Position numbers and translations under genes: made by a program
Sequence record: MN850645.1
Source of the DNA: Escherichia phage outra
Direction: 5' to 3' (one strand)
DNA length: 64,000 nt
Part shown: piece by piece, positions 4,592 to 61,430 of the stretch
How the letters are laid out: the number at the start of each line of letters is the position of its first letter
Numbering within the stretch: the first letter of the stretch is position 1
Notes under the pieces: generated by a model
Database searches by the model: none
Seen by the model: only the letters and a program-made list of their open reading frames with translations
What the model was told of the DNA's origin: nothing

Positions 4592-6571
4592 TTGTTAGAA
4601 ATTAACACTTCCAAGATTAAGAATACAGTAACGTTTACTGTAGATAAAGACAGTTTAAAAAATACTAAAGACGCAATTAAAAACCTTAAAACTTTTACAG
4701 AATCTATTGAACCATCTTTAAATATGACTAAAATGCGTCGTCAGTTTAAAAGTATGGAAGAGTATGCTAAAAGAATAAGGCAGCAAATGTCAGGTCTTGG
4801 CGGCGGTAATCCTCCACCAATCCCACCAACCGGAGGTTCAAGTGGTGGTGGAAAAGGAGGAAGTGGCAGAGGTGGTTCTGGATCTTCTGGAGGACGTAAG
4901 ACACCGGAGGAAAGAGCCGCAGAAGCCGCCGCTAAACGTGCAGCACTTGCTAATATGAAGCAAGACGATTTTAGTTTTAAAGCTATGCCTTTTACAAAAG
5001 CAGACAGTAGAATTCTAGAAAAATCTAAAAAGATTGTAGAAGAAACTGTTGAACTTTATCGTAAAGGCGTGATTACTAGCCAACAAATGAACAATACTTT
5101 GGCTAGACAGTTAGAAGAACTACGCAGATCTCATAGAGAGAAGAATGCACAACTTCTTGATGAAGAGAGAGCTAGACGTAGAATTGCCCGTCTGCAAGAA
5201 GCAGAAGATAAAAGAAGACAGCGTGTTCGAGAAAGAGAAAGAAAGGAGTTCGAACGTCAGCAAAGGAGGGAAAAAGAAGCAAGACAGCGAGATAGACAAC
5301 GTAAGTTATCTGGTGTAGGTAATGCTGCTATTGCTCTTAACCCTGCTATGTTTGGTGCTGCTCTTTTAGGTGCTGGTTTATATCAAGGCATAAGCAAAAT
5401 AGCTGAAAGCATCACAACTGCGGCAGAACGTATTAATATGGTTAGTAAAGGTGGTCAGAACGTACAGGTAAACCCTAATGCAATTTTAACAATGCGTACT
5501 TGGGGTGAGATGAACGGTGTAGACTCTGCCAGCATTATTAAAGCCATTGACAATATTAAAGACGTTCGTGAACGTTTAGGTAATACTGTACTCCACTCTG
5601 AATTTGATGAAAAATCAGGTAAATGGAAAGGTGGAGATAGTGGTATTAATGAAATCATGAACCAATTTGGTTGGTCGAAAGAAGATGTTGCTAAATTCCA
5701 GAACAGACCTTTAGACTTTGTTCAAGCACTTGTTAATGAAGGTCAAAAAAGAGGAATGAACTCCGCGCAAATTGGTCGTTTGATGGAAAACCTTGGTGAT
5801 GACTTAATGCACTACCAACGTATGTTTTTGGATAACGGTAAAGAGTACATGAAAGTCTTGGATATGTTAAAAAATTCAGGAGCCACTCTTAACGATGAAA
5901 ACATCAAAGCAGCACAAGATTTTGTTAAGCTAAGAGCACAAATTAGTGCAGCAGGAGAAGGTTTTACCAATAACTTACTTATAGGATTTATGGATGGTTT
6001 AAAATCTGCACCAGATTTTGCAGAGAATATGAAAACTTTCCAAGAAGCTGCTCGTGGTCTTGGTGAAATGTCTGGTAGTATTGTAAGTAGCCTTGCAAAA
6101 ATTGCGAAATATTTCCTTGATTTTTCAAATAAGGTTGGGCCAAAAAACAATACTAAAGAAGCTGTAAGAGATTATTATAATGGTACGCAGTATGGGTACG
6201 ATGCACAGGTTGGTGGTAATCCTTGGGCTTATTGGCCTATTGGAAGAGATCAACATCTGCCTGAAAATCAACCTTTAGGTAACTTTGATAGTAGTTTCTT
6301 AACTAGTGCCTTAAATCCAAGTGCTTCTAGTATTGGTTACAATAGACCTGATTTAACAGCATCTATGCTAACACCACGCCAAGGTGTTCCAGTACCGTTA
6401 AGTGTAGAGAATACGGTTGTTATCCCAGACAACGCATTCCAGATTAATGTTATTCCAGATGGCTATGGTTTTAGTAATTATCTAGATGCGACAATGAATA
6501 CCAGTTTTAGTAACTTCTCACAAGGTTTAACTCTTCAGTTAAGCAGTGGACAATCTTCTACTGGTGGTTAA
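4592..6571 (+). CDS. tail tape measure protein
   Basis: 659 aa; TTG start 6 nt after GGAGGA; Gly/Ser-rich low-complexity segment, long Arg/Glu-rich coiled coil, hydrophobic central segment; located after the chaperone frameshift pair. Confidence 0.7.
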   Translation: MLEINTSKIKNTVTFTVDKDSLKNTKDAIKNLKTFTESIEPSLNMTKMRRQFKSMEEYAKRIRQQMSGLGGGNPPPIPPTGGSSGGGKGGSGRGGSGSSGGRKTPEERAAEAAAKRAALANMKQDDFSFKAMPFTKADSRILEKSKKIVEETVELYRKGVITSQQMNNTLARQLEELRRSHREKNAQLLDEERARRRIARLQEAEDKRRQRVRERERKEFERQQRREKEARQRDRQRKLSGVGNAAIALNPAMFGAALLGAGLYQGISKIAESITTAAERINMVSKGGQNVQVNPNAILTMRTWGEMNGVDSASIIKAIDNIKDVRERLGNTVLHSEFDEKSGKWKGGDSGINEIMNQFGWSKEDVAKFQNRPLDFVQALVNEGQKRGMNSAQIGRLMENLGDDLMHYQRMFLDNGKEYMKVLDMLKNSGATLNDENIKAAQDFVKLRAQISAAGEGFTNNLLIGFMDGLKSAPDFAENMKTFQEAARGLGEMSGSIVSSLAKIAKYFLDFSNKVGPKNNTKEAVRDYYNGTQYGYDAQVGGNPWAYWPIGRDQHLPENQPLGNFDSSFLTSALNPSASSIGYNRPDLTASMLTPRQGVPVPLSVENTVVIPDNAFQINVIPDGYGFSNYLDATMNTSFSNFSQGLTLQLSSGQSSTGG

Positions 6572-10234: not shown

Positions 10235-10700
10235 TTTAACTACAATCAAGGTGTCTGATCTACCTGTAACAACATCTGTTTCAGACACAGATTATTTTGT
10301 AACAGATCAATCAGGCATCACTAAGAAAACATCCTTACGTGTTCTTCTTGCGGGTGCTGGTGTTACACGAAATCGTCTTTCTGCAAGGGGTACTGTTACA
10401 AATACCCTAGCTTTAGATATTAGCACGGCAGAGTATTTCTCTGCCACTTTATCTAGTCCAACTTGCAGTATTTCATTTAGTAATGTTCCAGTTACAACTA
10501 ACATTGTTCAAAACTTTACGCTATCCCTACGTCAAGGCAGTGGAGCAAATAAAGTAACGTGGCCTCAATCTGTTAAATGGAGTTTTGGTCGCGCTCCTGT
10601 TTTGAGTTATAAGCAGGGAGCTACAGATATTTTTGAATTTGTTAGTTATGATAATGGAGCTACCTGGATAGGTAGTTTAGTGATGGCAGGAGTGATTTAA
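10227..10700 (+). CDS. hypothetical baseplate protein
   Basis: 157 aa ORF overlapping its neighbours by 8 nt and 1 nt. Confidence 0.4.
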   Translation: MADLTTIKVSDLPVTTSVSDTDYFVTDQSGITKKTSLRVLLAGAGVTRNRLSARGTVTNTLALDISTAEYFSATLSSPTCSISFSNVPVTTNIVQNFTLSLRQGSGANKVTWPQSVKWSFGRAPVLSYKQGATDIFEFVSYDNGATWIGSLVMAGVI

Positions 10701-13584: not shown

Positions 13585-15660
13585 ATGAAACAGGCTATTT
13601 TTACTGTAACTCGAAATACGAGAGTAAATGCCAGTTCATTCAGCTATAAGACCGTCGATGGAACGGCGGTCGCTGGTAGAGATTATGTAGCTAAACAGGG
13701 AACAGTAACGTTCCCTTCTGATGCAGATTCTGCTACTGTAGTGGTTGATGTATATGAACGTCCGGCAAACTCTTTAGATCTTTATTTTACTCTTGAGATT
13801 ACTAGCATAAGTCAAAATAACATGATGATCAACGAAGAAATTCGTTGTGTTATTACGACTGATCAATCGAATACAACCCCGCTAACTTGGCCTGTTGTGA
13901 AGTCTAGAATGTTTGATCCTAAGTTTTGGACAATAGATTCTCAAGCAACAGAAAGTTGTTCTATTATCTCTAATGGTGATTCTTTCACAGCAAGAATGGT
14001 TAATAGGACAGTGGCTGGTCTTGCTGGGATTATTTGGTCAACTTACGATAAATATGATCACAAAGGATTAGGCTACCAAGAACATTCTGACTTAAGTAAA
14101 GAGAAACTTTGGTTTAAAATGGAACTTAGTCAAGGTGTTCCTGGATTAAAAGAAGAAAAATTAATGCCATCCTTAACAGTGACACTGAAGGATGAAACAG
14201 TTCATTATGTATCTCTAAACTTTTATGCAGAAGAAGTTTCAGAGGACGGTAAAACAGCAATAATCAAATTAGATTTCTCAAATTTAAAATCTGGGCCAGA
14301 AAATGATATTGTTGTTGACACTACACAGATAGATAACATGTTCTTCTCCTTGATTTCCGCAAGGTATCAAGAAATTGAAGATGTTATACCAGTAGACAAT
14401 ATAGATCTTTCCTTTAAGTTTACCATACTAGAGCCTGATACTGGTTACAGTATGATGAATATGGGTAATTTAAATGTTCCGGCGCACACCATAAGAATGT
14501 GTACATCTTATGATGATATGTATAACCTAACACCAGAGCGAGTTATTTCTAACACCTATAGATTAGGTTATAGAGATATGATTAACCATTATAATGGTAT
14601 GTCACACTATTATCAATTTAGTTGGGATGCCGGATCTAATAAATGGGCTTTGAATAGAACAGAATATTTAAACCCAGCAACAGAAGCCTGGTTTGATAAT
14701 TTCCACGCTAATGCAAAAGCTATGGGCTACACAGTAATGAACTCCTTAAGTTTTGAACTTATGAGTACAGTGTGTCCTGTAGAATGGGTACAACATACTT
14801 GGAATGATGATCTGGCTGCTACAGGTTATGAGCCACCAAGTTATGTTTTATCTCCTTCAATTGATGAAGGGATGAATTATTTACAAGGTGTAATAAATAA
14901 GATAGCTTCTATATCCGCTGCCAATGATCTTCCTGTTATTATTCAGGTTGGTGAACCGTGGTGGTGGTATAACACAGCTACCAATCTACCGTGTATCTAT
15001 GATTATACAACCAAAGTTGCATTTAATAATGAAACTGGGTTATATGCACAAGATGTTGGTACAGTTAAGAATTATAAAACTGGTACACCATATGATGAAT
15101 ATTATGCATTCCTATCTAAAACATTAGGACTGCGTGTTGCTAAATTTGCAACAGATACTAAATTAGCCTATCCTGGAGCTAAAGTTACATTATTACCATT
15201 TGTGCCATCCATTTTAGGTAACGGTATGATGGAGTTTGTTAACTTCCCTAAAGATCATTATATCCCAGAAAACTTTGACTTTTATTGTTCAGAATGTTAT
15301 GACTGGTTGTTGGAAGGTCAGATGGAAAGATCTTTCGACGCTATCAAAATACCTAATGAGCAACTAGGTTTTAGTTATGATAAGATACATTATCTTGCAG
15401 GGTTTGTTCCAGATGCAACTCTAGCACCATTATATGGCTTTGATCCTGAATCAGACTACAGAACATATTTGTGGAAAATGATTATAGGTAATATTGTATT
15501 GAATGACCAGAAGTTTGTTGGTTTGTATCAATACATATGGGCTTATCCACAAATTATGGCAGATTCATTAACTGTTCTTAATTCAAAATCCCAAGTTTTT
15601 TATATGGGTAACGTACCTCTGAATGTCTTTTTACAAGATACAGTATATGTTTCTTCTTAA
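13585..15660 (+). CDS. large baseplate / tail structural protein (691 aa)
   Basis: RBS AAGGAAAA; long ORF in the baseplate operon; no motif recognised. Confidence 0.45.
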   Translation: MKQAIFTVTRNTRVNASSFSYKTVDGTAVAGRDYVAKQGTVTFPSDADSATVVVDVYERPANSLDLYFTLEITSISQNNMMINEEIRCVITTDQSNTTPLTWPVVKSRMFDPKFWTIDSQATESCSIISNGDSFTARMVNRTVAGLAGIIWSTYDKYDHKGLGYQEHSDLSKEKLWFKMELSQGVPGLKEEKLMPSLTVTLKDETVHYVSLNFYAEEVSEDGKTAIIKLDFSNLKSGPENDIVVDTTQIDNMFFSLISARYQEIEDVIPVDNIDLSFKFTILEPDTGYSMMNMGNLNVPAHTIRMCTSYDDMYNLTPERVISNTYRLGYRDMINHYNGMSHYYQFSWDAGSNKWALNRTEYLNPATEAWFDNFHANAKAMGYTVMNSLSFELMSTVCPVEWVQHTWNDDLAATGYEPPSYVLSPSIDEGMNYLQGVINKIASISAANDLPVIIQVGEPWWWYNTATNLPCIYDYTTKVAFNNETGLYAQDVGTVKNYKTGTPYDEYYAFLSKTLGLRVAKFATDTKLAYPGAKVTLLPFVPSILGNGMMEFVNFPKDHYIPENFDFYCSECYDWLLEGQMERSFDAIKIPNEQLGFSYDKIHYLAGFVPDATLAPLYGFDPESDYRTYLWKMIIGNIVLNDQKFVGLYQYIWAYPQIMADSLTVLNSKSQVFYMGNVPLNVFLQDTVYVSS

Positions 15661-15917: not shown

Positions 15918-17404
15918 TGGCAGATTATGGTTTAACAGATGCTGGTTTTGTCATTCCAACGTTTGATGATATTCTAAATAATTATATGACAGCATTGAAA
16001 AACACTTTCGGTGCAGATACAGCTACATCTGAAGATACTGTCTTTGGTCAACTGTTTCGTATTATTGCATATACAGATTACACCCTTTGGGAAGGTATGC
16101 AAGGTGTTTACAATACCCAAACCTTAGATGGTGCAGAAGGTATTTACCTTGATGAAATTTTCTCTAAGAGAGGTTTTTATCGTAAGGCAGCTTCTGCTGG
16201 TAGTGGTTATGCTTATGTTAAATCTAACAATAAGGCAGCTTGGACTTATGAACTAAGCACCGATGTTTATTTTAATGCCGATAACGATTTGACATATTAT
16301 GTCAGTGCACCAACAATGTTGAATGCTAAGATTGGAGCATATACCATTTCTAAAGCAAACGCAACAGCTTCTGGTGAAACTTCTATTACTTTCTACATTC
16401 AAAGTGCTATTGATGGTGGTCTTAACAGTAAAACACTAAGTCCTAGCAATACAAACTTTATTTTAGATCTCACGAATTTCATTAAAGCTAACGTATCAAC
16501 AACAGATCGTGCTTTAGTATGGAATGATGCCAGTAATGTTTACATGGGTTATAATCCAGAAGATAATGTTAACCCAATAGGTCTAGTAACACCAGTGAAA
16601 TTTTACGCATCTATTGCAATTGGTACAAAATGGAGTGAAATCCCAGTTACGTGTTCAGACGTTGGTTATAATCCAGTAGGTACAGAAAGTATTACAGGTA
16701 TTTCTTCAACGTTTACAGGCTTTTTAGATACAGGTAACTTCTATCCATTCTCTCCAGGTACGGATGTTGAAACAGATGCAGAATTCCGTTCTCGTTTCAA
16801 TGATAATATGGATGAAGCTAATGCTGCTACTCGTGCTGCTATTGTTAAAGCTCTGCTACTGACAGATGGTGTGACAAAGGTTAAGATTTATGATAACCCT
16901 ACACTACATGATCAGGAACATGCTCCAGCTATGACATTCCAGACTATTGTGTATGGCGGTACAGCAGAAGAAGTTGCACAGGTTATTTATAATACTAAGC
17001 CTATTAACACCTTAACCTATGGTACAACAGCAATTACTATCGTAACAGAAGATGGCGGTCAAGAAGTAATTCGTTTTTCTCCTGGTGACAATGCTGAATA
17101 TTCACTTAAACTAGTATATCAAACTGGCAATGGTAGTGTATTAAGTACAACAGAAAGAGAAAATATTGTTTCTGCTCTTTCAAATCTACAGGCTTATTTT
17201 GAGTTAGGTTCAACAGTAACTAACGATCAGATAAAAGGTGTAATTTATTCTGCACTTGCGTTCGGACGCTTGACTTCTCTCCGTGTTTATGTTAAACTTA
17301 ATACTGAGGATGACAGTAAATATAATGAGGGAGATATCACTCCAGCGTACAATGTTGTACCATCCTTTGACCTTGATAATATTTCCTACGAGTACGGAGT
17401 CTAA
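15917..17404 (+). CDS. baseplate J-like protein
   Basis: 495 aa; RBS AAGGAGGA; size and N-terminal region resemble the baseplate J (gpJ / Mu gp47 / T4 gp6-like) family; followed by I-like, fiber and assembly genes. Confidence 0.7.
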   Translation: MADYGLTDAGFVIPTFDDILNNYMTALKNTFGADTATSEDTVFGQLFRIIAYTDYTLWEGMQGVYNTQTLDGAEGIYLDEIFSKRGFYRKAASAGSGYAYVKSNNKAAWTYELSTDVYFNADNDLTYYVSAPTMLNAKIGAYTISKANATASGETSITFYIQSAIDGGLNSKTLSPSNTNFILDLTNFIKANVSTTDRALVWNDASNVYMGYNPEDNVNPIGLVTPVKFYASIAIGTKWSEIPVTCSDVGYNPVGTESITGISSTFTGFLDTGNFYPFSPGTDVETDAEFRSRFNDNMDEANAATRAAIVKALLLTDGVTKVKIYDNPTLHDQEHAPAMTFQTIVYGGTAEEVAQVIYNTKPINTLTYGTTAITIVTEDGGQEVIRFSPGDNAEYSLKLVYQTGNGSVLSTTERENIVSALSNLQAYFELGSTVTNDQIKGVIYSALAFGRLTSLRVYVKLNTEDDSKYNEGDITPAYNVVPSFDLDNISYEYGV

Positions 17405-22400: not shown

Positions 22401-24362
22401 GTGATTTTAACACGTCCAAATAGTGCCATTGCAGACATGGTAGAGTCTCGCTATAGAAAGCGTAGAAGTTTTGCAAGTGGTTTTACCTTAAGAGATGCTC
22501 GTGAAGCATTGCTCTTTGAAACTGACGGTAACTACTATCAGTGGAAAGGTTCTCTACCTAAAGTTGTACCTGCTAACTCTACTCCTACATCTACTGGAGG
22601 TATTTCAGATACAGCTTGGAAAAATGTGGGTAATGCAGATGACATTGCTCAAATAGAATCAGAATTAGATGCTATTGAAGCTGAAATTGAAGATCTTAGA
22701 GAATCCATTCCAGAAGCTGGTAAATCAGCTTACCAGATTGCCGTAGACAATGGTTTCCAAGGTACTGAGACAGAGTGGTTGGCTTCTTTAAAAGGTGATC
22801 CAGGTGCTCCATTAAAGCTGCTAGGGACGCTATCTAATACCAACCAATTACCTACAACTGGAAACAATGCAGGAGATGCATGGATTGTAGGCGAGAATAT
22901 GTATGCTTGGGATGGTACTGCTTGGAGAAAAGTAAACTCACAGGGGCCAGAAGGTAAATCAGCTTATCAAGTTTGGCTTGCAGCAGGAAACCAAGGTACA
23001 GAACTAGATTATCTTGCTTCAATTAAAGGTGATAAAGGGGAGCCTGGCCCAGAGGGGCCACAAGGTGTACCAGGTAACAATGCTAATGGTTTTGATTACC
23101 AAGGTGCAGCTAATTCCGTTTCAGATCTTCCTTCTGCATCTCCTGGAAACACATCTCAAGCATGGAGTATTGGTACATATCTATACGTGTCAAACGGTGT
23201 AGAATGGATCAATATGGGTGCTATAGTGGGGCCAAAAGGAGATAAAGGCGACAAAGGAGATAAGGGTAACACTGGTGATTCAGCTTATCAAGTCTGGTTA
23301 AACGCTGGTAACGTTGGTACTATTGACGAATATATTGCCTCTCTGAAAGGAGAAAAAGGTGATAAGGGAGACAAGGGTGATCAAGGTGAGCAGGGTATAC
23401 AAGGCTTGACGGGGCCAACTGGTGCAGGGTTGACCATTATTGATATTCTGACTGACACTTCTGAACTACCACAAACTGGAGAAGATGGTGATGGTTATCT
23501 GATCAATAATGAACTTTGGGTTTGGTTGCAAGGAGCCACACAGTGGACAAATGTTGGTCGTTTAGCTGGTACTCCAATCACTGCAAAAGGACACGTTGCG
23601 TCTGCAAGTGCACTTCCTCCTACATCCAATTACGGTGATGCTTATCTAACGGAAGACACAGGTCATCTTTACATTTACACCTATGATGAACAAACTCAAA
23701 CTGCTGAATATGTAGATATGGGCAGTTTGAAAGGTGATAAGGGTGAGAAAGGTGACGCTGGTACTAACGGTACAGACGGTGCAACTTGGATTGTTAAAAC
23801 AACAGATCCAATCTCTAGTGATGGTAAACAAGGGGATTATGCCTTTAATATCTCCACTGGCGAGGTGTTCTTAAAAACATCTGCAACTGTCTGGACTTCT
23901 CAAGGTACACTACCTAGCATTACAGATGCACCTAGTGACGGTAAGATCTATGCTCGTAAAGATGGAGCATGGGAAGAACTCACCAGTTCTGTAGATGGTC
24001 AAGATATAGTTCCAACAAAAGTAACAACTAATTTTATAGAGGTTACAGCATATACCAACAACTCTGTTACAGGTGACTGGACACCTCCAGGAACACATAA
24101 CATGAATGTGTTGAATCTTACTGGTAACTCTACTATAAAAGCATGGCCTGGTGTCGAAGATAGCACAAAACCTAAACCATTCTCTGCAATAGTTTATCTT
24201 ATCCAAGATGCCACTGGAGGTCGTACTGTTACTTTAGATCCATCTTATAAAGTAATTGGTTCTAGTGATATTAATACAGATCCTAACGGAGTAACAATAC
24301 TACAACTAACATATTGTGGTGTTGGTGATTACGTGGATGCTATTGTTGCTAAACGCACATAA
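22401..24362 (+). CDS. tail fiber protein with phage-fibre repeats and collagen-like Gly-X-Y repeats
   Basis: 653 aa; GTG start after AAAGGAG; three copies of a SAYQ...GxQGTE...(W/Y)LASLKG repeat; several GDKGDKGDKG-type collagen-like runs. Confidence 0.7.
   Translation: MILTRPNSAIADMVESRYRKRRSFASGFTLRDAREALLFETDGNYYQWKGSLPKVVPANSTPTSTGGISDTAWKNVGNADDIAQIESELDAIEAEIEDLRESIPEAGKSAYQIAVDNGFQGTETEWLASLKGDPGAPLKLLGTLSNTNQLPTTGNNAGDAWIVGENMYAWDGTAWRKVNSQGPEGKSAYQVWLAAGNQGTELDYLASIKGDKGEPGPEGPQGVPGNNANGFDYQGAANSVSDLPSASPGNTSQAWSIGTYLYVSNGVEWINMGAIVGPKGDKGDKGDKGNTGDSAYQVWLNAGNVGTIDEYIASLKGEKGDKGDKGDQGEQGIQGLTGPTGAGLTIIDILTDTSELPQTGEDGDGYLINNELWVWLQGATQWTNVGRLAGTPITAKGHVASASALPPTSNYGDAYLTEDTGHLYIYTYDEQTQTAEYVDMGSLKGDKGEKGDAGTNGTDGATWIVKTTDPISSDGKQGDYAFNISTGEVFLKTSATVWTSQGTLPSITDAPSDGKIYARKDGAWEELTSSVDGQDIVPTKVTTNFIEVTAYTNNSVTGDWTPPGTHNMNVLNLTGNSTIKAWPGVEDSTKPKPFSAIVYLIQDATGGRTVTLDPSYKVIGSSDINTDPNGVTILQLTYCGVGDYVDAIVAKRT
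22700..23800 (+). repeat. intragenic tandem repeat region (three phage-fibre repeats and three collagen-like Gly-X-Y blocks)
   Basis: Protein repeats at about aa 108-135, 187-215 and 293-320; Gly-X-Y runs near nt 23230-23280, 23350-23410 and 23730-23780. Confidence 0.6.
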
Positions 24363-38742: not shown

Positions 38743-39252
38743 TTAGCGATAGAATTGATGTTCTTTGTAGCGGTACACTAGAACCATATCTTTTTCCCAG
38801 TGTGCTCTTATTGTAGATTTTTTAAAGTATAATGCTCCTTTTGTAATATCTAATGCAATTCGTAATTCTGGAAAATGCGTATCGAGATAAAGTAGACGTT
38901 CTGCTATAGTCTTAGCTTCCTTCCACTTATCACGTTCCATAACGTTGAATGTCTTTGTGTAAGAGAATTGTCCTTTTTGAAACAAAACTTCTTTTATAGT
39001 ATCAGGGAAATATGAATCTCTAGCCCTATTCAATACTACATTACCAACAGCAGACATACCTCGCTTTCCTTGATTACGACTTTCTGCATAGATTGCACAA
39101 GCTAATAGATTTTCTTTACTATCACGCTTTGTACACTTGTGAACTACTTTAGCAGTTTTTACGTTTGCAGCTTCGGCTTGCGCCACAACAGGTGTAAATG
39201 TAAAAGCAGTTAAGGATAGTAACGCAATTGCGACAAAGGTTTTTATTGACAA
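38743..39252 (-). CDS. secreted cell-wall hydrolase, SleB / Hydrolase_2-like
   Basis: N-terminal signal peptide (FVAIALLSLTAFTFTPVVAQA); core CAIYAESRNQGKRGMSAVGNVVLNRA resembles the SleB-type hydrolase signature; TTG start after TAGGAGG. Confidence 0.55.
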   Translation of the reverse strand: MSIKTFVAIALLSLTAFTFTPVVAQAEAANVKTAKVVHKCTKRDSKENLLACAIYAESRNQGKRGMSAVGNVVLNRARDSYFPDTIKEVLFQKGQFSYTKTFNVMERDKWKEAKTIAERLLYLDTHFPELRIALDITKGALYFKKSTIRAHWEKDMVLVYRYKEHQFYR

Positions 39253-50929: not shown

Positions 50930-51400
50930 TTAGTCAGATTCCCAAATGTTGTCTTTCTTAACCCACATTCGTTGATTATCTGAACCTCTATAACGTTTCG
51001 TTGTTGGTTGAGTCATATCATACTTACCATCTATTACTATGTCAACCAGTTTTTTAATTTTCTCTGGAATTTCTTCAAAAAGATATCCTGTATATAAGAC
51101 AATATCTTTTTTGTTTCTAAAACAATCTCTTACCTTCTCAAGAACATACTCTACAGTGTCAATGTTCTCTTTGTCAAGAGGTTCACCACCTAAAACTGTT
51201 AATCCTTTAATGAAAGGTCGAGATAAATCTTTCAAGATAAGATCTAATGTTTCAGTAGTGAACTCTTGTCCGTAGTTATACGACCAGGCTTTCTGGTTAA
51301 AGCAGCCACGGCAACCGTGGCTACAACCGCTCACCCACAAAGAGCATCTTACACCATCACCGTTGAGCATGTCAACAGGTTCATATCCGGCGTAATTCAA
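50930..51400 (-). CDS. nrdG: anaerobic ribonucleotide reductase activating protein (radical SAM)
   Basis: 156 aa; CSHGCRGC radical-SAM cluster motif; N-terminus MNYAGYEPVDMLNGDGVRCSL matches T4 NrdG; TTG start overlapping the nrdD stop. Confidence 0.8.
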   Translation of the reverse strand: MNYAGYEPVDMLNGDGVRCSLWVSGCSHGCRGCFNQKAWSYNYGQEFTTETLDLILKDLSRPFIKGLTVLGGEPLDKENIDTVEYVLEKVRDCFRNKKDIVLYTGYLFEEIPEKIKKLVDIVIDGKYDMTQPTTKRYRGSDNQRMWVKKDNIWESD

Positions 51401-53285: not shown

Positions 53286-54236
53286 TTAGTCAAGGTTTTT
53301 GGTAATACGTGTACAACCATCAGAAGTCAAACCGTCAACTTGAGTTTCCCAAGTGCCATGAATATTTCGGAACAATGTTGTTACACCTTTTGGTTCATTA
53401 ATAATGATTGCCATAACAAGTTTAGGATCGATAACAGACATAATCTTTTCCTCAATACCCTCTGTAATAACATTATTACGCACAATATTAATTACATCTT
53501 CTTGTACAGAAAGGGTACTTACGTTCTTAAGAGTATATACCTGCTGCGTAGTGTAAATGATACGAACATAACTTACAGAACGAGTAGGCACAGGTTTACG
53601 CGGTCGGCGAAAACGTGGTTTTGGTGAAGATTCAGTCTTACTTTCATTTTTTGAATAATACTCCTCAAACAGTTTAGTAAATGTTTTTACATCAACTACA
53701 AACCGATCTTTCCTATATGGAGAATTCTTATGTGCACCATTAATACCACTGTTTTCATCGAAGAAAGTAATGTTTTCTTCAGTTGAATATGTTAGATAAT
53801 GGTCTGCATCTTTCCAATGTGGTTGTGGACAATGCGGATTACAAACGGAAAGCAGATAACTAATATCTTCTTCCGTTGCACTAGTATCCAGGAAACACGT
53901 ATTGTGCACAGTCAGTTGTACTTTTGCAACCATATCCATTTCTTTATCCTCGTTGGCAAGATATTCAGTACGAATAATTTCCAGAAAACCTTCAGGTGTT
54001 ACTTCCATAAATGTGTATTCAGGGTGAAGTTCCATATATTCAAATCCACAACCATCTAATTGCTGTAGGAAGTTAGGATAGAAGAACAAGTCATTAACAC
54101 TATGAATCAGATCATTGATTTCTGCTTCAGATGTGTAACCAAAACTTTTGTGAATTGCTTCATTAAGAATATGCAGGATACCCATCTCTTCTGCTGCTTT
54201 TTTAACTTCCAGTTTATTAGCGTAAAATGCAATCAT
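53286..54236 (-). CDS. hypothetical protein
   Basis: 316 aa; GAAGGAGAA 5 nt upstream; no motif recognised. Confidence 0.45.
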   Translation of the reverse strand: MIAFYANKLEVKKAAEEMGILHILNEAIHKSFGYTSEAEINDLIHSVNDLFFYPNFLQQLDGCGFEYMELHPEYTFMEVTPEGFLEIIRTEYLANEDKEMDMVAKVQLTVHNTCFLDTSATEEDISYLLSVCNPHCPQPHWKDADHYLTYSTEENITFFDENSGINGAHKNSPYRKDRFVVDVKTFTKLFEEYYSKNESKTESSPKPRFRRPRKPVPTRSVSYVRIIYTTQQVYTLKNVSTLSVQEDVINIVRNNVITEGIEEKIMSVIDPKLVMAIIINEPKGVTTLFRNIHGTWETQVDGLTSDGCTRITKNLD

Positions 54237-60694: not shown

Positions 60695-60723
60695 AATCTA
60701 GATTATTTAGTAGGTAGAGTCAA
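60695..60723 (-). promoter_or_regulatory. candidate sigma70-like promoter (TTGACT-17 nt-TAGATT)
   Basis: -35 at 60723-60718 and -10 at 60700-60695 on the minus strand, upstream of the small ORF at 60502-60666. Confidence 0.35.
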
Positions 60724-60726
60724 TAA

Positions 60727-60993
60727 CTAATTACTGTTAGATCTGTACTCTGTCTTCCATTCACAATGGTAAACTTCAACAGGTTCTAACTTCCAGTGTT
60801 CAGGAACTAGTTCAGGACAATATCTACAAAAGAGAAATAGATAGATAACTAAGACAGGTATTAAATAGTAAAATGGTATACGATCATAACCATACTTACG
60901 AGATAACATGTAGACATATAGATAGGGTATAACAATTAATCCTATAACTATAAGTAAGAAGAGAAGTATAAACCTTAGTGTAGTAACATCCAT
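60727..60993 (-). CDS. small membrane protein (two TM helices)
   Basis: 88 aa; AGGAGA 5 nt upstream; hydrophobic LRFILLFLLIVIGLIVIPYLYVYM and LIPVLVIYLFLF. Confidence 0.45.
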   Translation of the reverse strand: MDVTTLRFILLFLLIVIGLIVIPYLYVYMLSRKYGYDRIPFYYLIPVLVIYLFLFCRYCPELVPEHWKLEPVEVYHCEWKTEYRSNSN

Positions 60994-61070
60994 AGTATTC
61001 TCCTATACAGTAATATACTCTGTTCCTGCCCCTCCATGAGTGACAGGAACAATATCTATAGAGAATACTA
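60994..61070 (-). promoter_or_regulatory. nested RNA secondary structure enclosing the RBS of the downstream membrane-protein gene
   Basis: 9 nt inverted repeat AGTATTCTC (60994-61002) / GAGAATACT (61062-61070) enclosing a 7 bp hairpin GTTCCTG...CAGGAAC (61011-61039); on the mRNA the 3' arm contains the Shine-Dalgarno region. Confidence 0.35.
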
Positions 61071-61157
61071 ACTCGCTTCGCTCGTCACCTTTCAGGTTTA
61101 GGGTAGCATGTTTTTCTGAAAAAGTCAATACTCTCCACAAAACTTTACAAAATACTT

Positions 61158-61430
61158 TTACATAGGTACAACAGAGTCTGTTTTGAAGTCGTACATATGA
61201 TTTACACCTGTGATTTTTGACATAGAGATTGCACGTTTAGCACCTGCAATTACCTGGTCTGTCTTCTTAATCTCTTCACGGAACTTACGTACAGTTAAAG
61301 AGAAGAAACGATGATCCATCCATTGACGATTCACACGATCACGCTTGAAGTGACGGAAATCTTCAATCTGCTTATTGCGCAATCGGCGCAGTACATGCAA
61401 TAGTTGATAGTAAGGGTGTTTATTTTTCAT
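61158..61430 (-). CDS. hypothetical basic protein (possible nucleic-acid binding)
   Basis: 90 aa, Arg/Lys-rich; GGAGAA 6 nt upstream. Confidence 0.4.
   Translation of the reverse strand: MKNKHPYYQLLHVLRRLRNKQIEDFRHFKRDRVNRQWMDHRFFSLTVRKFREEIKKTDQVIAGAKRAISMSKITGVNHMYDFKTDSVVPM

Follow-up and report, generated by a model that had tools for sequence, protein, structure and literature searches.

A genus-specific helix predicted to mask a phage ribosome-binding site, and the conserved promoter-like hairpin cassette to which it belongs

Does the inverted repeat that lies immediately upstream of a small membrane-protein gene in a phi92-like coliphage hide the Shine–Dalgarno sequence (SD) of that gene, and what kind of control might follow if it does? 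The window (the whole stretch of DNA analysed, 64,000 nt of Escherichia phage outra, sequence record MN850645.1) derives from a phi92-like myovirus of the genus Justusliebigvirus, subfamily Stephanstirmvirinae. Over the 1.1 kb that surrounds the hairpin it is 100% identical to Escherichia phage vB_EcoM_ESCO8 and 95–99% identical to 54 other records. Four ‘Campylobacter phage’ records (A150, A145, C3 and A110a) are ~99% identical to phi92-like coliphages, and one ‘Acinetobacter’ and one ‘Pseudomonas’ phage record contain Phapecoctavirus sequence; mislabelling or contamination is the likely origin of these odd hosts.

Every gene around the hairpin locus is carried on the minus strand. The upstream gene ends at 61158, 164 nt before the start of the membrane-protein gene, and a promoter-like site lies within that gap; the next promoter-like site begins four bases past the stop codon of the membrane-protein gene. 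Bracketed by these two sites, with no terminator between, the gene can be regarded as a self-contained unit. A terminator search of the locus on both strands found none, the hairpin itself being without a U-tract, and read-through transcripts from upstream are therefore possible. The features of the locus are as follows.

60727..60993, minus strand: gene for an 88-aa protein with two hydrophobic helices and the conserved C-terminal motif PVEVYHCEWKT (open reading frame and alignment)
60695..60723, minus strand: next promoter-like site, TTGACT-17-TAGATT, with 9/12 consensus matches (scanner)
60993..61070, minus strand: nested structure, a long imperfect hairpin of about 32 pairs (fold of the 79-nt hairpin alone, −31.5 kcal/mol)
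60993..61003, minus strand: SD arm GGAGAAUACUA (sequence and fold; the phi92 record annotates AGGAG as ribosome-binding site)
61060..61070, minus strand: anti-SD arm UAGUAUUCUCU, the 5' strand of the basal helix (repeat finder and fold; lineage-specific helix)
61021..61051, minus strand: conserved central hairpin, a 10-bp stem UGUUCCUGUC/GGCAGGAACA with inner CUC-AUG-GAG (covariation in 11 leaders)
61069..61087, minus strand: GA hairpin, UGA-C-GA-GC-(GAA)-GC-GA-G-UUA (invariant core and flank covariation)
61093, minus strand: predicted transcription start, a G 7 nt after the −10 element (standard sigma-70 geometry)
61100..61108, minus strand: putative extended −10 element TGcTACCCT, TG at 61108-61107 and hexamer at 61105-61100 (conservation)
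61123..61128, minus strand: putative −35 element TTGACT of the cassette promoter, probably of sigma-70 type (sequence and conservation)

The 88-aa protein is assigned to phrog_18381, belongs to no Pfam family and has only 5 homologue clusters in a large protein database. Orthologous proteins are 46–56% identical to that of the window and retain the PVEVYHCEWKT tail. The gene is frameshifted to 68 aa in phi92, ESCO32, UAB_1 and cardinal (also at locus L001 1887-2093), phage inny matches the protein from residue 29 on only, and in Klebsiella phage KP13-16 the gene is largely deleted. Being frameshifted, truncated or deleted in several relatives, it is dispensable.

The inverted repeat and its fold are non-random and exceed what chance would give. 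An earlier note on this DNA had described a 9-nt inverted repeat (AGTATTCTC/GAGAATACT), which is real and which the repeat finder extends by one pair, giving 10-nt arms at 60993-61002 and 61061-61070 that are 100% complementary and separated by 58 nt. A second inverted repeat (61021-61034 / 61038-61051) is enclosed by these outer arms. The ‘7-bp GC hairpin’ placed there by the same note exists as an inner core, GTTCCTG/CAGGAAC, although only four of its seven pairs are G-C. When folded, the minus-strand RNA from 61075 to 60985 (91 nt) forms a single long imperfect hairpin of −32.1 kcal/mol, compared with −19.1 ± 3.2 kcal/mol for 200 dinucleotide shuffles (z −4.11), none of which is as stable. 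Ranked against every 90-nt segment of the 64-kb window, both strands included (mean −14.8, sd 4.8), it is approximately the eighth most stable distinct site; those folding as stably or more (−32.5 to −34.1 kcal/mol) lie at 51251-51340 (−), 39136-39225 (+) and 13646-13735 (+), and further at 23026-23115 (+), 4806-4945 (both strands) and 10381-10470 (−).

The base of the hairpin is a helix of 11 pairs in which UAGUAUUCUCU (61070..61060) is matched with GGAGAAUACUA (61003..60993). Paired within it are the GGAG of the SD AGGAGA (61004..60999), the spacer nucleotides and, at 60993, the first base of the AUG. The sequence, the minimum-energy fold and the ensemble thus agree with the earlier claim that the 3' arm overlaps the SD just before the ATG on the minus-strand mRNA.

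How strongly the site is masked was computed on the leader folded from the predicted transcription start to +33. The partition function gives an unpaired probability of about 0.14–0.19 from SD to AUG, and forcing the ribosome-binding site open costs about 10.5 kcal/mol, against a median of 5.0 kcal/mol for the 80 crudely called gene starts in the window, among which it ranks sixth by opening cost and has the third lowest accessibility. Five other gene starts in the window reach as high a cost, and the masking is high without being a unique outlier. SD and start codon are thus paired in a stable local structure of the 5' untranslated region (UTR), as expected of an SD-sequestering attenuator of the generic kind.

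The geometry had also been taken as typical of RNA thermometers or of coupling-dependent unmasking, and neither proposal survives. The computed unpaired probability of the SD is 0.19–0.20 at 20–60°C and 0.24 at 75°C, a level due largely to a single bulged A. As SD pairing does not change across 20–75°C, a thermometer is rejected; nor is there a match to ROSE, fourU or any other Rfam family, a permissive search of 60700-61300 against Rfam 15 yielding only spurious miRNA-type matches with E up to 10. The leader resembles ROSE and fourU elements in that its SD is paired with an upstream pyrimidine-rich arm, but differs from them in having 11 mostly Watson–Crick pairs stacked on ~21 more, and neither melts in this range nor contains their motifs. 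Coupling is contradicted by the distance to the upstream gene, by the promoter-like site between the two genes and by the lack of conservation of the sole open reading frame in the leader. This is a 20-codon frame, MEGQEQSILLYRRILWMLLH (window 60975-61037, minus strand), which opens at an AUG in the apical loop (61037) and crosses both the SD arm and the main start in a different reading frame. It lacks an SD, and its AUG is missing from every orthologous leader, the loop there being GUA, GUUA or GUCA. With geometry (the SD within a helix, a 20-codon frame from the loop) as the one point in their favour, thermometer control and coupling via this upstream frame are both scarcely credible. A 45-aa frame with a TTG start at 61003-61140, annotated in some records, was likewise rejected as coding: it spans the promoter and is interrupted by alignment gaps of 1–2 nt. 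These gaps, not being multiples of three, indicate that the leader is untranslated.

Within the genus the leader varies little. Its 100 nt are 100% identical in 43 of the 55 records, the surrounding 1.1 kb being 95–99% identical in 49 of the 55. Five variant leader events occur and all keep the structure. A98G produces a U.G pair; G91A turns a U.G into a U-A pair, weakening the SD; A78G falls in the inner stem, where a U.G wobble may persist; the remaining two are a change in a bulge and one additional G in the apical G-run. No double compensatory change in the leader is found among the 55 records, and the perfect conservation could stem from DNA-level constraints or recombination. The leader is retained in phi92 and those relatives in which the membrane-protein gene is broken, and its persistence beside a pseudogene suggests that it matters for something other than this protein.

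Comparison beyond the genus brought in the region upstream of the hairpin. By distant BLAST, 61132..61037 has counterparts in Phapecoctavirus genomes with ~79% conservation, two in each genome and both in unannotated gaps; the conserved stretch runs from the promoter-like region over the motif ACGAGCGAAGCGAG into the hairpin, of which it takes in the 5' half. By pattern and model searches the recurring unit, here called the cassette, consists of TTGAC(T/A), 17–19 nt, TG.TACCCTA, 8–18 nt, and then C-GA-GC-loop-GC-GA-G. Metagenome and genome scans raised the number of distinct versions to 42. In the window TTGACT (61128-61123) is separated by a 17-nt spacer from TGcTACCCT (61108-61100). Of 17 aligned cassettes, 15 have the TTGAC and two have TTTAC in its place, with the spacing to TACCCT fixed at 17–19 nt; the T, the G and TACCCTA are invariant columns in these 17 and in all 42 distinct cassettes. 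The consensus scanner gave no promoter call here, TACCCT matching TATAAT at 3/6 positions, the critical T, A and T, so that the site is read as a promoter on the strength of its conservation. A literature search returned nothing on transcription starts in Stephanstirmvirinae or on the motif string, the matches being plasmid-backbone sequence.

The GA hairpin that follows would begin about 7 nt from the RNA 5' end if transcription starts at 61093. It comprises two G-C pairs closing a GNA loop, tandem G.A/A.G pairs, a closing C-G pair and a covarying flank, and its core, CGAGCG-N(1-3)-GCGAG, is invariant across the aligned cassettes. In the 42 versions the loop is GAA (19), GAUA (13), GCA (5) or another sequence (5), that is, a GNA triloop or a GNRA/GNNA tetraloop. 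Covariation of the flank scores 0.335, against 0.183 ± 0.04 in shuffled alignments, and none of 500 shuffles reaches it. Of the 42 versions, 37 can form the first flank pair (C-G in 23, A-U in 13; shuffle mean 22, maximum 29) and 40 the third, mostly as U.G or U-A. An Rfam search with the window region and six related loci gave no credible match to the GA hairpin or to the sequence downstream of it. A further small hairpin between the −10 element and the GA hairpin was considered and dropped, its best stem (2.9, against 2.25 shuffled) being too weak and straddling the predicted start.

The window holds exactly one copy of the cassette (model R1) and phage ESCO13 holds three, the number per genome in Stephanstirmvirinae contigs of the phi92-like, Klebsiella-phage-like and Phapecoctavirus-like lineages. 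Cassette loci and the three types of setting are listed here.

Cassette loci: window 61069-61128 (minus strand); L003 805-870; L007 6244-6318; L008 29789-29864; L057 3268-3345; L078 3041-3115
Type A: opposes the surrounding genes in all three lineages, with no open reading frame of its own; L078 3041-3200; L045 8620-8760; L003 795-960 (ESCO13 record 16215-16420, minus strand); ESCO8 record 53302-53441
Type B (the window copy): within a same-strand run of genes, always after a homologue of gene 61158-61430
Type C: at a divergent junction, with a leader of about 250 nt
Integrase-linked: L176 3800-4130 (Citrobacter sp. OP27 chromosome); L175, L181 and L184; metagenome loci L198, L224, L228 and L229

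From its sequence and setting, type A looks like a small or antisense RNA gene and is treated as a candidate; it is at least 98.5% identical across all 55 Justusliebigvirus records, including ESCO8 53302-53441, which corresponds to DNA outside the window. Chromosomal copies, known from Citrobacter, Buttiauxella and Scandinavium, follow a tyrosine-integrase gene (Pfam PF00589) at a distance of ~30 nt. The integrase-linked copies are followed by 0.8–1 kb of conserved sequence with stable hairpins, in which there is no convincing open reading frame and no Rfam match.

The cassette scans supplied 11 distinct orthologous leader-plus-gene units, in which the parts of the nested structure could be compared. 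The position of the cassette downstream of the homologue of gene 61158-61430 is kept in three phage lineages. In the alignment of the 11 leaders the GA hairpin is paired in 100% of cells and the central hairpin (61051..61021) in 95.4%, with seven of the 19 central pairs changed on both sides. The covariation score of the central hairpin is 0.279, against 0.087 ± 0.019, and is reached by 0/500 shuffles, while slid controls pair at no more than 54%. Covariation in which G.U pairs are abundant or invariant implies that both hairpins act on the transcribed strand. The helix that pairs the SD behaves differently. Lack of covariation in related phages had been named by the earlier note as grounds for refutation, and this helix, in the register of the window, is paired in 70.7% of cells against 69.5% in shuffled alignments, with a covariation score of 0.124 against 0.106 that is reached by 108 of 500 shuffles. 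It is missing or weak in eight of the 11 leaders, where the SD is mostly open. The opening cost is 10.5 kcal/mol in the window and 9.2 kcal/mol in phi92, and 1.2–5.8 kcal/mol in the other nine, which is at or under the genome median. The metagenomic leader L201 has an intermediate, related arrangement; the RNAalifold consensus of an earlier alignment of six leaders (A1) leaves the SD unpaired; and the Seunavirus homologue (38% identity) has no leader whatever, its start overlapping the upstream stop. SD masking is thus genus-specific, and the helix fails conservation beyond the genus. It may be a neutral or a recent extension.

In orthologues outside the phi92 lineage the conserved central hairpin is 19–22 bp long. 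Its stem strands are nearly invariant there and its apical stem covaries. Its internal loop (L002 880-925, L132 640-685, L196 and L210), CCU-GA-C...G-GA-AGG, is a symmetric GA/GA one and gives the leader a second tandem G.A motif, resembling that of the GA hairpin.

On balance, the best reading of these results is that a genus-specific translational damper has probably been added onto a conserved leader hairpin. Transcription would start near 61093, from a conserved promoter of sigma-70 type (TTGACT, 17 nt, TGcTACCCT), and the nested hairpin would form the downstream two-thirds of a 5' UTR of ~100 nt on a monocistronic mRNA for the small two-helix membrane protein. The RNA would first fold the invariant, extra-stable GA hairpin and then the long hairpin, the apical half of which (61051..61021) appears to be an ancient leader element, common to the orthologous leaders of Klebsiella phages and metagenomes. 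In the phi92 lineage the base of the stem would have been lengthened by the 11-bp helix, in which the UCUCU-containing arm pairs with the GGAG of the SD, the spacer and the A of the AUG. With the anti-SD arm emerging ~60 nt ahead of the SD, the ribosome-binding site should close once it is transcribed, and 30S subunits would be left with ~10 kcal/mol to overcome. The predicted outcome is a static lock, that is, a constitutive and temperature-independent damping of translation of the membrane protein, which the earlier note took to be potentially toxic and for which low expression may be needed.

Other readings explain parts of the same evidence. The leader hairpins may serve RNA stability or protein binding, the GA hairpin as a protective 5' stem-loop and the central hairpin as an operator, the SD pairing of phi92-like phages being incidental; we consider this somewhat unlikely. 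It is consistent with the confinement of covariation to these two hairpins, with the extra-stable loops (GNA or GNRA closed by C-G) and tandem G.A pairs of the GA hairpin, with the second GA/GA internal loop in the central hairpin of most orthologues, and with a cassette that also seems to head non-coding and antisense transcripts and a leader that outlives its broken gene. Stem-loops at the 5' terminus stabilise bacterial and phage mRNAs, the ompA leader being an example, and the GA hairpin, very stable and within ~10 nt of the predicted 5' end, resembles them; unlike them, it has a sequence-invariant core with tandem G.A pairs that suggests specific recognition, and the invariance of the hairpin core exceeds the needs of stability alone. 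A helix of 10 kcal/mol over the SD would, moreover, still affect initiation, whatever its origin. It is also possible, if unlikely, that the hairpin of ~32 bp is cut by host RNase III, as are T7 early mRNAs, lambda cIII and E. coli adhE. Cleavage would part the anti-SD arm from the SD and either turn translation on or lead to decay, making the lock conditional rather than static. At ~32 pairs, the ribosome-binding site included, the stem is well above the ~20 bp required for an RNase III-activated leader, and it is interrupted by bulges like phage processing signals; the 19–22 bp of the orthologous central hairpins would explain hairpin conservation regardless of SD pairing. Relief of ribosome-binding site occlusion by RNase III cleavage is an established mechanism, the sites of E. 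coli adhE and lambda cIII remaining occluded until cleavage (PMC5371410). The present leader shares with these two a stable helix that pairs SD and start codon and an imperfect duplex of RNase III size, on a transcript of phage early type, but here the masking helix is limited to one genus and is built on an older hairpin. RNase III would not require the primary sequence of the stem strands, UUCGUUCCUGAC / GGAAGGGACGGAU, to be conserved, as it is. As roles of the conserved hairpins, or ways of opening the lock, RNase III processing, 5'-end stabilisation and a specific factor acting on the G.A helices remain candidates.

The lock might instead be opened in trans, by pairing of the type-A small RNA with the anti-SD arm to free the SD, after the model of anti-antisense activation or of type I toxin mRNA control. 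In the phi92-like type-A RNA the GA hairpin is followed at once by 5'-GUAGAGAAUAUU-3', with 12 nt of unbroken complementarity to the arm AGUAUUCUCUAU (P about 0.009 in 1000 shuffles, a post hoc figure), and the type-A cassette, nearly invariant in the genus, is convergent with its neighbours in three lineages. Against this, whole-RNA duplex energies between type-A RNAs and type-B leaders are no better than those of shuffles, and the Klebsiella-phage pair has no such complementarity. In type I toxin mRNAs such as hok, tisB and zorO the SD is sequestered, and the present gene is like them in encoding a small hydrophobic protein behind a leader that would lock the ribosome-binding site. It is unlike them in its 88 aa, two helices and conserved soluble tail and in having no cognate antisense RNA at the locus, antisense promoter-like sites being not above chance (3 found, 4.6 expected). 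A type I toxin–antitoxin system, with a toxin under ~60 aa, a single helix and an antisense RNA, was rejected on the same counts, and opening in trans is in our view improbable. Somewhat less so, though quite unlikely, is a role at the DNA level, in which the cassette would serve mainly in recombination, shuffling accessory genes, with the downstream hairpin as a passenger. The model for this is the promoter-early stem-loop (PeSL) of T4-type phages, of which there are about 50 copies (PMC2839356, PMC4122927). Cassettes and PeSLs are both repeated composites of a strong sigma-70-like promoter and a stable stem-loop, set beside small non-essential open reading frames where gene content differs between relatives. 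The cassette is syntenic while the gene behind it varies, from the membrane protein in the phi92 and Klebsiella lineages to other small frames in Phapecoctavirus, and two cassettes in one Klebsiella-phage genome are identical past the hairpin (GGGGAGATTCT), which suggests exchange. Unlike PeSLs, however, cassettes number three per genome rather than dozens in hyperplastic regions, and their stem-loop lies downstream of the start, transcribed and 5'-proximal, instead of terminating or attenuating transcription from a position at the promoter or upstream of it; they also have an invariant G.A core and an unusual, invariant −10 element (TACCCTA), and occur in three phage lineages and in integrase-linked chromosomal elements. 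Strand-specific covariation with G.U pairs argues further for function in the transcript. Combining several of these elements, the cassette, with or without the second hairpin, could be an undescribed family of cis-regulatory leaders and small RNAs read by a dedicated factor, with the type-A RNA unlocking the membrane protein in a two-cassette switch. A phage or host factor may then recognise the invariant C-GA-GC...GC-GA-G core, and the family may have members in enterobacterial phages and integrase-linked elements; this we hold to be very unlikely as a whole.

For the genus-specific damper that we prefer, the masked ribosome-binding site is of an ordinary, routine kind for an accessory gene. 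Masking by itself changes little, and the unannotated cassette of promoter and GA hairpin is the more notable result. It sits in widespread large coliphages and in Klebsiella phages, several of them therapy candidates, and its three copies in each genome would head an mRNA leader, a long leader at a divergent junction and a transcript that is antisense or non-coding. It gives a defined starting point for work on early transcription and RNA biology in these phages, and it marks sites of accessory-gene swapping.

Sequences resembling part of the cassette also occur elsewhere. A loose motif scan of viral contigs returned mostly chance matches, and unrelated lineages with TACCCTA...CGAGCGNAGCGAG were not counted as homologues. 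The same mini-hairpin core is seen in unrelated sequences at L023 2033-2161, L029 4980-5109 and in ~20 similar small viral contigs, as well as at L179, L183, L186 and L226. Some unrelated contigs have divergent pairs of TACCCTATCCCCCCC(A/T)ACGAGCG(A/G)AGCGAG, and Chloroflexota and other genomes contain GTCATTCCGAGCGNAGCGAGGAATC. In these unrelated contigs the core probably represents convergent use of an extra-stable hairpin.
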